Program-made: the position numbers and the translations under genes
Shown here: piece by piece, positions 1,770 through 4,790 of the stretch
Layout: every line of letters starts with the position of its first letter
Numbering within the stretch: position 1 is the stretch's first letter
Origin: a virus
Taxonomy: Duplodnaviria > Heunggongvirae > Uroviricota > Caudoviricetes
Direction: 5' to 3' (one strand)
DNA length: 4,790 nucleotides
IMG/VR virus record: IMGVR_UViG_2531839439_000012
Location: 1-4,790 of that record
The notes under the pieces: generated by a model
Told to the model about the DNA's origin: nothing
Database searches by the model: none
What the model saw: the letters and a program-made list of their open reading frames with translations, nothing else

Positions 1770-1804
1770 GGAGGTATCCGCACAACGCGGATATACAGGA
1801 CATG
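1770..1804 (+). promoter_or_regulatory. Structured translation-initiation region of the TMP gene: SD GGAGG (1770-1774), then a 7-bp stem-loop (1775-1793), then 8 nt, then ATG 1802
   Basis: TATCCGC (1775-1781) and GCGGATA (1787-1793) are exact reverse complements around loop ACAAC. GGAGG is 27 nt from the ATG in linear sequence, but folding would leave an effective spacing of about 8 nt. No other in-frame start lies between the upstream stop (1718-1720) and 1802. Confidence 0.3.
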
Positions 1805-3703
1805 AGTAACACAAACGTAGGTAGAATTTATTATGAGGTTGATGCGCGCACAGGGAAGCTATTAACCGCAGGGAAACAAGCTGACGACGCATTCGATCGC
1901 ATTGAACGCGGCGCAAAGCGCGCTGATAACTCAATCAACAAACTGAATACGACAATCAGCAAACTGGCGGCGGCGGTTAACGTTGGCCTGCTAATGATGG
2001 CGGCTAAACGCTTTATTGAAATCGCGGACAACGTAAAACTACTACGCGCCCGTGTATCCCGGCTATCCGGTAGTCTGGTTGAAGCTAAGGCTAATTTTAG
2101 CGGCATTCTTGAGATCAGCAAGCGAACTGGCATGAAGATTGAGGATACTACGAAGTTATGGGAAAACCTTACTTCAGCTTTGTCTGATTCAAACGCTACC
2201 AGGGGCCAGATCTTACAGTTGACAGAGACACTACAGCAGATCGGGCGTATTGGTGGTAGTTCATCCGAAGAAGCCGCAAACGCCTTGCGACAGTTAGGGC
2301 AATCTATTAACGGCGGGATTGTCCGTGCTGAGGAATTTAACAGCATCCTGGAGGGTATGCCGGAGCTATGGCGGCGCGTAGCAAGTCAGATGGGGATCTC
2401 AATGGGTGAGCTACGTCGCCGCATGTTGGATGGCAAACTGACGGCTGAGGATGTAGTAAATGCAATCCTGAAAGGATCAGGCGAAATCGAAAAAGAATTT
2501 AACAAGCTGCCGACAACCACGGAACAGGCAATGACAGAGCTATCAACAAATTTTAGCCTGTTACTGGAAACCATCGACCAGACGCTGCATGTTACTGAAC
2601 TGGTCGGTCGCGGTATTAAAACGCTGGCTGATTATTGCCGCGAGCTATCCGGCTGGTTTAAAACGCTGAAATCTGATTCTGCGTCATTGGCTGATAAGTT
2701 ATGGACACTTGCCGCAGCCTTTGAGCCGTTTGTGCCGGGCCTTGATTTATTCCGCGCTCAAGCCAAACAAACCGACTTCTTAGGCGCAGCGCCAGACAAT
2801 CAATCTACGGGTTTTGTGTCAACGCTACCGACACAGCAGGCCACCACTGATATTAAGCTGAAAGACAATGGCGGTGGAGGTGGCAATAAACCGAAACGCG
2901 CGCAGAAAGATCCGGCAGAAGAATCGCTGAAACGGAAACGCGCAGAACTGGAACGACTTAACCAGGGCTTTGCTGAGGGTAGCAAAGAGGCTGAAATGTG
3001 GGACGCCGTTCAGGAAATGGGCGCTAACGCAACGGCAAAACAGGTTAGTGAGATGAAAAACCTTGCGCACCTGATTTACGAAACAAACGCCGCGCGTGAG
3101 CATCAAATCGAACTGGAAGAAAAAGCAAAACAGCTTAATGAGCAATTTAATCCCGTTGATGCGCTCAAACAACGCCATGCCCTTGAAATGCAACAGGCTG
3201 ATGAGCTATTCAACAAACAGATGATTAACGAGGAAACGCTAAACGCGCTTAAACAACAGCACGCAGAAGAATTGCTTGCCTCGCAGTGGGAACAATTCCG
3301 GGCGCAAGGTGGGATTAATGGCCTGATTGGTGACATGGCTGATGGCCTGAGTGGTGGCGCTACAAATGCCGTTGTCGGCCTGCTTAATGGTACGCAGAAC
3401 CTGGAAACCGCTTTCGCCAATATCGGGACTACCATTCTCGGAAAAGTGGTGGGAAGTATCGCTGAGATGGGCGCTGAATACGTCAAACAAATGATCTTAA
3501 GCGAGGCAGCCAGCGCCAGCGCAATGAGCGGACAAGCGGCAACAGGCGCATCAATCGCATCATCAATGGCCCCGGCAGCAGCGGCGACAGCTACCGCGAC
3601 AATGGGGACGGCCCCGATGGTCGCAATGTCAGCTATCAGCGCCTTGATGGCTGGCATTACTGGCTTGTTTTGGCGGTGGTCGCTACAACGGCGGCGCGGT
3701 TAA
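1802..3703 (+). CDS. Phage tail tape measure protein-like (N-terminal TMP domain, K/E/Q-rich coiled-coil, Gly/Ala-rich hydrophobic region); frame as given ends prematurely at 3703
   Basis: 633-aa ORF. Residues ~150-230 (LRQLGQSINGGIVRAEEFNSILEGMPELWRRVASQMGISMGELRRRMLDGKLTAEDVVNAIL) match the conserved tape-measure N-terminal domain as I recall it. A long charged helical segment (KRKRAELERL...QQHAEELLASQWEQFRAQ) is followed by a Gly/Ala/Ser-rich hydrophobic segment, as is typical of TMPs. The ATG at 1802 is the first start after an in-frame stop at 1718-1720. Confidence 0.85.
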   Translation: MSNTNVGRIYYEVDARTGKLLTAGKQADDAFDRIERGAKRADNSINKLNTTISKLAAAVNVGLLMMAAKRFIEIADNVKLLRARVSRLSGSLVEAKANFSGILEISKRTGMKIEDTTKLWENLTSALSDSNATRGQILQLTETLQQIGRIGGSSSEEAANALRQLGQSINGGIVRAEEFNSILEGMPELWRRVASQMGISMGELRRRMLDGKLTAEDVVNAILKGSGEIEKEFNKLPTTTEQAMTELSTNFSLLLETIDQTLHVTELVGRGIKTLADYCRELSGWFKTLKSDSASLADKLWTLAAAFEPFVPGLDLFRAQAKQTDFLGAAPDNQSTGFVSTLPTQQATTDIKLKDNGGGGGNKPKRAQKDPAEESLKRKRAELERLNQGFAEGSKEAEMWDAVQEMGANATAKQVSEMKNLAHLIYETNAAREHQIELEEKAKQLNEQFNPVDALKQRHALEMQQADELFNKQMINEETLNALKQQHAEELLASQWEQFRAQGGINGLIGDMADGLSGGATNAVVGLLNGTQNLETAFANIGTTILGKVVGSIAEMGAEYVKQMILSEAASASAMSGQAATGASIASSMAPAAAATATATMGTAPMVAMSAISALMAGITGLFWRWSLQRRRG

Positions 3704-3995
3704 CGGTGGCAATCTTTACAGGGTTGGTGAGCACGGTGTCCCTGAGTTATTTACCTCTACTGGCGGGAAACAGTACATGATCCCCGGCGAGGGTGGACGA
3801 GTTACACCGGGCCGCGATCTGGTTGGCAGTGGTGGCGGCATCACACTGAACGTAACAAACAACATCCAGGCGACAAACGGCTGGACTGAAGACGACTCAA
3901 AAGCGTTGCAACAGACTATAGAAAACACAGCAATGCGCCTGATGCAGCGCGAGTCGCAAAGACCTGGAGGCATGTTACAACCACGGCGGCGTTAA
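3672..3995 (+). CDS. C-terminal segment of the same tape-measure-like protein, in the +1 frame (frameshifted continuation); the 6-frame track shows its ATG-initiated part as 3777..3995
   Basis: The frame with codons at 3672, 3675, ... is open from 3648 to the TAA at 3993-3995. It encodes GGGRYNGGAVNGGNLYRVGEHGVPELFTSTGGKQYMIPGEGGRVTPG..., which resembles the conserved TMP C-terminus (compare phage lambda gpH ...GNLYRLMRGY... and the common ...YRVGE.GPEL... pattern). Both frames are open across 3648-3703, and the junction sits at the T4 run 3668-3671. Confidence 0.6.
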   Translation, partial: GGGRYNGGAVNGGNLYRVGEHGVPELFTSTGGKQYMIPGEGGRVTPGRDLVGSGGGITLNVTNNIQATNGWTEDDSKALQQTIENTAMRLMQRESQRPGGMLQPRRR

Positions 3996-4165
3996 CCAAA
4001 TCCCACGCCAGGGGGATAGACTGGCGGACCTTCAAAGACGGTCGCACACCGTGTTTAACATAATTTATTGTTTTTTGCTTGCTCTTATTATTGCAGCCGT
4101 TAGAGTTGGCGTGGCAGTTTTTCACCTGTTTCGCGTGTTGCTGTGTTTTTGGGGAAGAAAAACAA

Positions 4166-4261
4166 ATGAGAAGGCTTATATACCTGGTATTTATGCTATT
4201 TGCTATCGGGCAAGCCATAATTTTTATCACAATGCTGATCTGTCTGATGCTCTTTAGTTAA
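4166..4261 (+). CDS. Candidate small hydrophobic membrane peptide (31 aa: MRRLIYLVFMLFAIGQAIIFITMLICLMLFS)
   Basis: ATG at 4166 is preceded by GGGGAAG (4151-4157) at about 8-nt spacing. The peptide has a basic N-terminus (RR) followed by one predicted transmembrane helix. It is the internal-start version of the 60-aa ORF 4079..4261. I recognise no homolog, and short ORFs in AT-rich DNA are often spurious. Confidence 0.25.
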   Translation: MRRLIYLVFMLFAIGQAIIFITMLICLMLFS

Positions 4262-4790
4262 CTCCACCAGGATCCGCGCCGGGCTTTGCTATACAGACCA
4301 ATCACTCTTAATATAAGCTATTGATTCTTCTTAATTATAACCGCGCGTTAGAATTAACCTTCCCGCCATAAACGCTCCTACGCAAAAATCCCTCACAACT
4401 ACCCTGTCAATTTGCCAGATTTCACGTACACGCGCCCATATCCCCGCTACCGGATACACGCCCGCTTATACCGGACACCGGATAAACAAAGGCCCAGGTA
4501 GTTAGCAACCTACCCAGGCCCCGCGCATGGTTTTAATGCCATCATTATTAAGCATGCTAATACTAATCAAATCATAATTAGCACAACTTATAATCGAACA
4601 GAAAACACACAAACCAGATAATGATTTTTTCTGGTTATACTTATCTAAAAAAGTGGTATAGGATGTAACTTATTATTTTGTAAGGATAAATTTATTGCGT
4701 GGTAAGATGAACAGGCTTGTGCACCTCCCGAAAAACACGCGAAAATCAAAGTGTTCTTTCTTTTTTTGTTTTTATTTTTTCATTTTCTCT

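Follow-up and report, generated by a model that had tools for sequence, protein, structure and literature searches.

[quoted passage not shown] In the siphophage mEp013 the TMP gene (gene 87) precedes the tail-tip genes M, L, K, I and J of a lambda-like tail cluster. Sf11 gp18 belongs to the complete tail cluster of an infectious phage, and its alpha-helical C-terminus (residues 749-780) was seen embedded in the tail tip (J Virol 2025, PMC12724387). A programmed frameshift is known in tail assembly; it is a -1 event in the gene of the G/GT chaperone (PMC5009743).

The DNA analysed here (the window) is the entire 4,790-bp draft contig AQCR01000005.1 from assembly GCA_000354495.2 of E. coli MP021017.4. 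Its TMP gene stands alone in the chromosome, unlike that of Sf11, and, in contrast with the lambdoid and ES18-like siphophages, lacks chaperone, tube and tip genes in its vicinity: upstream are a filamentous-prophage secretin and a dif-like junction, downstream is eutA. The likeness to lambda G/GT, that of a tail-related gene which continues in another frame, is superficial, since there the gene is that of a chaperone and the shift is in the -1 direction.

The tape measure gene and its interruption

The features of the gene, all on the + strand, are as follows.

1802-3703, + strand: tape measure protein ORF as deposited, ATG-initiated, 633 aa (ORF list, translation)
3534-3535, + strand: 12-bp in-frame deletion relative to TOK-001 (AATA lost, in an Ala/Thr-rich, repeat-like segment; alignment)
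3668-3671, + strand: T4 run with the extra T (alignments against TOK-001, GF3-3, PV15-279, PI6, EFF60 and six sister assemblies)
3671-3703, + strand: out-of-frame tail of 10 codons and premature stop TAA at 3701-3703 (translation)
3672-3995, + strand: conserved TMP C-terminal module of 107 aa and natural stop (translation, homologs, dN/dS)
3777-3995, + strand: spurious 72-aa 'hypothetical protein' EMV02943.1, whose start codon is the first in-frame ATG within that module

The gene is that of an ordinary siphophage-type tape measure protein, 730 aa long when intact. The deposited ORF, called as EMV02942.1 'tape measure domain protein [E. coli MP021017.4]', matches Pfam TMP_3 (PF20155) over residues 70-260 and the full profile (2-192 of 192; E=1.8e-53), as well as PHROG tail length tape measure families (down to 2e-128). 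Translation gives 623 native residues, ending in ...AISALMAGITGLF, then 10 out-of-frame residues (WRWSLQRRRG) and the premature TAA. Codon 623 is TTT at 3668-3670 and the fourth T, at 3671, comes directly after it (context CTTGTTTTGGCGG). A TGA at 3645-3647 closes the +1 frame on its upstream side. Read from 3672, this frame gives GGGRYNGGAVNGGNLYRVGEHGVPELF... up to TAA at 3993-3995, and 3648-3703 is the exact zone with both frames open. Deletion of one T creates an ORF of 2193 nt, that is 730 aa, and the repaired protein equals database protein P0007 at every one of its 730 residues. The first-pass annotation had placed the junction at the TTTT run, with an upstream frame ending in WRWSLQRRRG-stop and the TMP continuing in the +1 frame, and had expected a single ORF of about 730 aa (1802..3995) once a T was removed: translation and the alignments of relatives confirm the junction, and its coordinates, context and peptides are all correct.

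Homologs are colinear with the repaired gene. At least 80% of the gene is covered in 19 complete E. coli genomes, where it is annotated 'tape measure protein', and the intact colinear proteins in complete E. coli genomes are 726-734 aa long; the four that were inspected (TOK-001, PI6, GF3-3 and PV15-279) are uninterrupted ORFs of 732-734 aa. One unbroken ORF crosses the junction in six of the seven homologs examined (these four, GD33 and APEC). The seventh, EFF60, is colinear across the junction in the same frame, with one internal stop further upstream. In the complete members of the 90% cluster, LFGGGRY runs on to the C-terminus. The same holds further afield: the TMPs of mEp013 and mEp021 and of the Salmonella phages ES18, vB_SosS_Oslo and SPN3UB are colinear with the repaired protein at 42-50% identity over about 90% of the length, to the last residue, and Sf11 gp18 (PDB 9OCC chain M) is colinear from query residues 28-700 against chain residues 48-741 (E=7.8e-111), the alignment crossing the junction with ...TGLFGGGRYNGGAVNGGNLYRVGEHGVPELF opposite ...SIAGALKNGGPAQEGSMYRVGENNLPEIF. 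The alignment of both frames with TMP homologs, which the first-pass annotation had proposed as a check, thus finds them colinear, and none ends at the position equivalent to 3703.

At the T-run itself, the nucleotide alignment has TTTT in the window, TTT in TOK-001 and PI6, and TTC in GF3-3, PV15-279 and EFF60. The comparison of run length in related genomes that had been suggested therefore returns a three-base Phe codon in every relative. TOK-001 and PI6 are 99.4-99.5% identical to the window. Over 3,256 bases, six differences separate the window from TOK-001: four substitutions, the 12-bp in-frame deletion and the extra T. The deletion, which makes the TMP 730 instead of 734 aa long, probably arose by slippage between short direct repeats. 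In the 327 bases 3' of the shift there is no difference from TOK-001, so that the lesion, if real, is very young.

The C-terminal module

The peptide read in the +1 frame (GGGRYNGGAV...YRVGEHGVPELF...QPRRR) has no differences from the C-terminus of TOK-001 and P0007. Matches to it came from 316 phage records, most of which bear the annotation tail length tape measure protein, and by itself it aligned with residues 668-741 of 9occ_M (E=3.4e-15), so that its initial designation as a TMP C-terminal signature proves bona fide. Comparison of the repaired gene with the GF3-3 and PV15-279 alleles gave a dN/dS of about 0.1 over the full length and of 0.05-0.11 in the module, values which indicate that the module is read in continuity with the TMP body across the family. 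By these sequence comparisons, purifying selection acts on the gene family when it is read in the one repaired frame. As deposited, the polypeptide stops at 3703 and does not reach the C-terminal tip-anchoring module; with one T removed, it does. Judging from its position, the frameshift would remove the tip-anchoring C-terminal end, of which the last ~35 residues were left unaligned by HMMER.

From FGGGRY on, the module shows 79-95% nucleotide identity among three otherwise unrelated TMP bodies of eut islands (EFF60-, GD33- and APEC-type; L005, L006 and L007). The module being common to unrelated bodies, the frameshift site falls on a boundary of recombination or mosaicism.

That boundary is what gives some appeal to a natural two-gene architecture, in which the N-terminal body and the C-terminal module would be separate by design, the latter as a mosaic unit. 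Several island TMP variants do become similar to this gene, at the nucleotide level, exactly from the junction on (query 1867, window 3668), and a metagenomic scaffold, L012, displays two ORFs here, including one matching the 72-aa ORF. L012 was nevertheless rejected as an independent split because a scaffold gap of 10 N stands exactly at the module boundary. Against separate genes, six of the seven homologs carry one ORF across the boundary and EFF60 is colinear in the same frame; the phage TMPs and Sf11 gp18 are also continuous. The +1 ORF has no start codon before the ATG at 3777, and re-initiation for a separate C-terminal protein is unlikely as this first start is well inside the module. 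The colinearity of all homologs excludes such an architecture, to which we grant practically no chance.

Clonal sister assemblies and their errors

The 633-aa product was found in exactly one contig among 153 billion gene positions. Sister contigs were recovered via the 41-aa ORF located at 1146-1271. They come from six assemblies (AQCO, AQCP, AQCS, AQCT, AQCU and AQFI) whose accession prefixes flank AQCR, and all six have the clone-specific layout: secretin, 41-aa ORF, dif-like junction, TMP with the 12-bp deletion, eutA. Being common to the seven clonal assemblies, the deletion is a genuine marker of the clone or lineage. The T4 lesion is absent from the six sisters, each of which has TTT and the intact 730-aa ORF (P0007); the 72-aa call EMV02943.1, made because the TMP frame is broken, is absent from them as well.

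Other sources added little. The T4 allele had no exact match in the genome contig collection, which is little informative as it holds one genome per species. A 'samples_with_this_contig' value of 2 was rejected as independent confirmation, the count being the same for every sister contig. P0007 has a 'Logan' source and P0001 does not, which hints that independent re-assembly of the reads may not reproduce the split; we gave this no weight. No literature was found on accession AQCR00000000 or strain MP021017.

The seven clonal assemblies were compared over 60 kb of aligned sequence, the multicopy prophage part being counted separately. There were 14 substitution columns and one indel, the extra T. 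Outside the multicopy prophage, the substitution sites number 11: eight GGT→GGG (on either strand), two GGC→GGA and one CGT→CGG. All are private except 1912, common to two assemblies; by the four-gamete test, 1912 is incompatible with site 1014, a shared substitution inside the prophage. One of the private sites is in the TMP gene of the window:

2317, + strand: second private difference, G versus T in the six sisters and TOK-001, synonymous GGT→GGG (alignment)

GGT→GGG is a systematic Illumina base-call error, the sites of which are replicable between runs (Meacham et al. 2011, PMC3295828). It explains 8 of the 11 substitution sites, including 2317, and the recurrence at one site across assemblies; it is a substitution, and by itself yields no T insertion. 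The batch (AQCO-AQCU, AQFI) has about 2e-4 uncorrected consensus errors per base, or roughly one GG-motif error per 4-5 kb, and none of the differences among the clonal assemblies in the 60 kb has a biological appearance. The other homopolymer runs of 4-7 bases between 1535 and 4790 all agree with TOK-001 (48 of 48, among which 19 of five bases or more), so there is no general homopolymer problem.

Origin of the extra T

A consensus error of the draft assembly, namely a homopolymer overcall in an isolate that carries an intact gene, is in our opinion the probable origin of the extra T. A relic TMP gene survives, in E. coli clone MP021017, from a CPZ-55-family island at the eut locus; its Phe-623 codon TTT is recorded as TTTT in the MP021017.4 draft contig. 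The extra T shifts the frame, yielding 10 wrong residues and a stop and orphaning the 107-aa C-terminal module. On this reading the MP021017.4 isolate itself would carry the intact gene, like the sister isolates. The difference is private among clonal replicates and sits in a homopolymer, and other differences of the error type are present in the contig and the batch. Six intact clonal sisters, together with the error signature of the batch, rank a sequencing or assembly error ahead of genuine decay: at about 2e-4 errors per base, and with no biological-looking difference, a private single-base difference is much likelier to be an error than a mutation. The lack of downstream decay and the purifying selection in the repaired frame also count for an artefact. 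Four points count against it. The errors demonstrated in the batch are substitutions after GG, not insertions; Illumina consensus indels are uncommon in a run as short as T3; the 48 other homopolymer runs speak against any general trouble with such runs; and a real inactivating mutation would be tolerated in a relic that has no obvious remaining function in the clone.

The same points lend some credit to a genuine private mutation, whereby replication slippage from T3 to T4, in the MP021017.4 lineage only, would have turned the relic TMP gene into a pseudogene very recently. This is a possibility to be taken seriously, even if we hold it for the less likely origin. The indel is in a homopolymer, no other homopolymer of the contig is miscalled, and the known error mode of the batch would not produce it. 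Intact colinear orthologs, as expected for a frameshift pseudogene, do exist. With an IS1-truncated remnant of a filamentous prophage on one side and eutA on the other, the gene is isolated and its loss would cost nothing, and the EFF60 island member has been independently inactivated. Weighing on the other side, the allele is in one assembly only, there is no secondary decay downstream, and the six intact sisters are identical over 60 kb save for the error-motif sites; real divergence within the clone is thus very low, which makes a private indel in a given 2.2-kb gene improbable a priori.

A real T could also be bypassed by +1 frameshifting, programmed or 'corrective', with tRNA-Phe slipping from UUU to the overlapping UUU (U UUU G) so as to restore ...LFGGGRY.... 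Read from the sequence, a P-site tRNA-Phe that slipped on U_UUU would find a perfect pairing again and give back the wild-type sequence, and low-level corrective frameshifting at indels is known (PMC5009743). The site, however, is not conserved: the nearest relatives and the six sisters have TTT and the others TTC, always within one ORF. With no conserved slippery site, programmed +1 frameshifting is rejected, and the first-pass opinion that it was much less likely holds. A slow A-site codon and an upstream SD-like stimulator are the established attributes of prfB-type +1 sites. In prfB the shift takes place at CUU UGA with an upstream SD, whereas the TMP site has no stop or hungry codon, the 0-frame A-site codon being UGG, neither stop nor rare, and no SD-like stimulator: the 15 nt upstream, GGCAUUACUGGCUUG, are without GGAGG- or GGGGG-like element. 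The well-known shift of tail assembly, for its part, is -1 and in the chaperone gene, not in the TMP gene. At best there would be unselected background slippage; that the T is real and that a low-level corrective slip on U_UUU_G keeps the relic partly functional is, like programmed frameshifting itself, most improbable. Were it true, a helper phage, for instance, or a CPZ-55 element that behaves like a satellite could make use of the full-length TMP in trans. Transcriptional slippage was rejected as unlikely, T4 being far shorter than the known slippery runs.

Whichever of the two, artefact or private recent mutation, accounts for the split, it is ordinary, and involves no new mechanism. The first-pass proposal of a non-programmed one-base insertion, through a real slip or a homopolymer error, is borne out; only the ranking changes, with error now placed before decay.

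Surroundings of the gene

Positions 1 to ~1545 belong to a filamentous (inovirus-type) prophage, of which they form the right end; it has a pIV-like secretin and adjoins the eut island:

86-1051: pIV-like secretin of the inovirus-type prophage
1146-1271: 41-aa ORF of the inovirus-type prophage
about 1449-1490: terminator-like hairpin and T-run of the inovirus-type prophage
1535-1562: dif-like Xer site AGTGCGCATAAGATTCATTACGTTAAAA, at the exact junction between the filamentous-prophage right end and the eut island

The prophage part is 97-98% identical to a prophage present in tandem arrays in E. coli strain JNE25-005, with up to 11 places per genome, and its presence in many copies is probably the reason for the draft contig breaking off here. 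In a 720-kb sister contig (L020, 6541-10400), this prophage is cut on the left by IS1 and only Zot and the secretin are left. Compared with E. coli dif, the dif-like site matches at 21 of 28 positions (10 of 11 in the XerC arm, 9 of 11 in the XerD arm). Prophage-like sequence gives way to island-like sequence where the XerC arm meets the central region. Dif-like sites were also located in L001 (2734-2761), L003 (~2713), L011 (~2734), L005 (~1879) and L012 (~4436); none was found in GD33 or APEC. In uninterrupted CPZ-55-like islands the site is kept ~265 bp upstream of the TMP start, even when the TMP bodies differ. A chance test for this site is circular, the pattern having been derived from the site itself. 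The site may serve the island for multimer resolution, in the manner of cer or psi, and the inovirus as a landing pad.

The TMP region belongs to an island of the CPZ-55 type, ~8-12 kb long and bearing intZ, between eutB and eutA. In relatives (L008, 13400-21280; L025, 1900-13900) the island contains intZ, an HNH endonuclease, a TerS-like protein (phrog_1482), HTH proteins and yffS; one variant has an HK97-gp10-like protein as well. We take the K-12 CPZ-55 to be of the same family, from the names intZ and yffS. The TMP gene is the only recognisable tail gene in the island, with no capsid, tube or tip genes. The MP021017 clone differs from the rest of the family in that the IS1-bounded filamentous-prophage remnant takes the place of all island sequence on the upstream side of the dif-like site; eutA and eutH are directly downstream of the window sequence in the sister contigs. 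The 'decaying prophage' setting initially proposed for the gene is therefore sound. By its context, the TMP gene is a relic, however the question of the T-run is resolved.

The EFF60 homolog of the TMP gene (L005, 2145-4328), with its internal stop, is annotated as a pseudogene, and genuine decay of island TMP genes thus occurs elsewhere. By their size and content, and by a lone TMP under purifying selection, CPZ-55-type islands recall a phage satellite with a tape measure of its own; in the library of papers searched, none links CPZ-55 with 'satellite'. Past the TMP gene, the segments 4051-4261 and 4540-4790 hold two overlapping small ORFs for very hydrophobic peptides (68 and 60 aa) and, behind these, AT-rich sequence that appears to be non-coding and contains several T6-T7 runs; a 48-aa gene is called in that region in one sister assembly. 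A scan of the window with Rfam matched no RNA family.

Significance

EMV02942.1 and EMV02943.1 most likely belong together as one 730-aa tape measure protein of the ordinary kind, which a single-base problem in a draft assembly has divided in two. In the AQCO-AQCU and AQFI drafts, what looks like a SNP or a frameshift should not be taken as biology without the reads. The biological weight of the split is small: if the extra T is real, it represents the routine decay of a prophage remnant.
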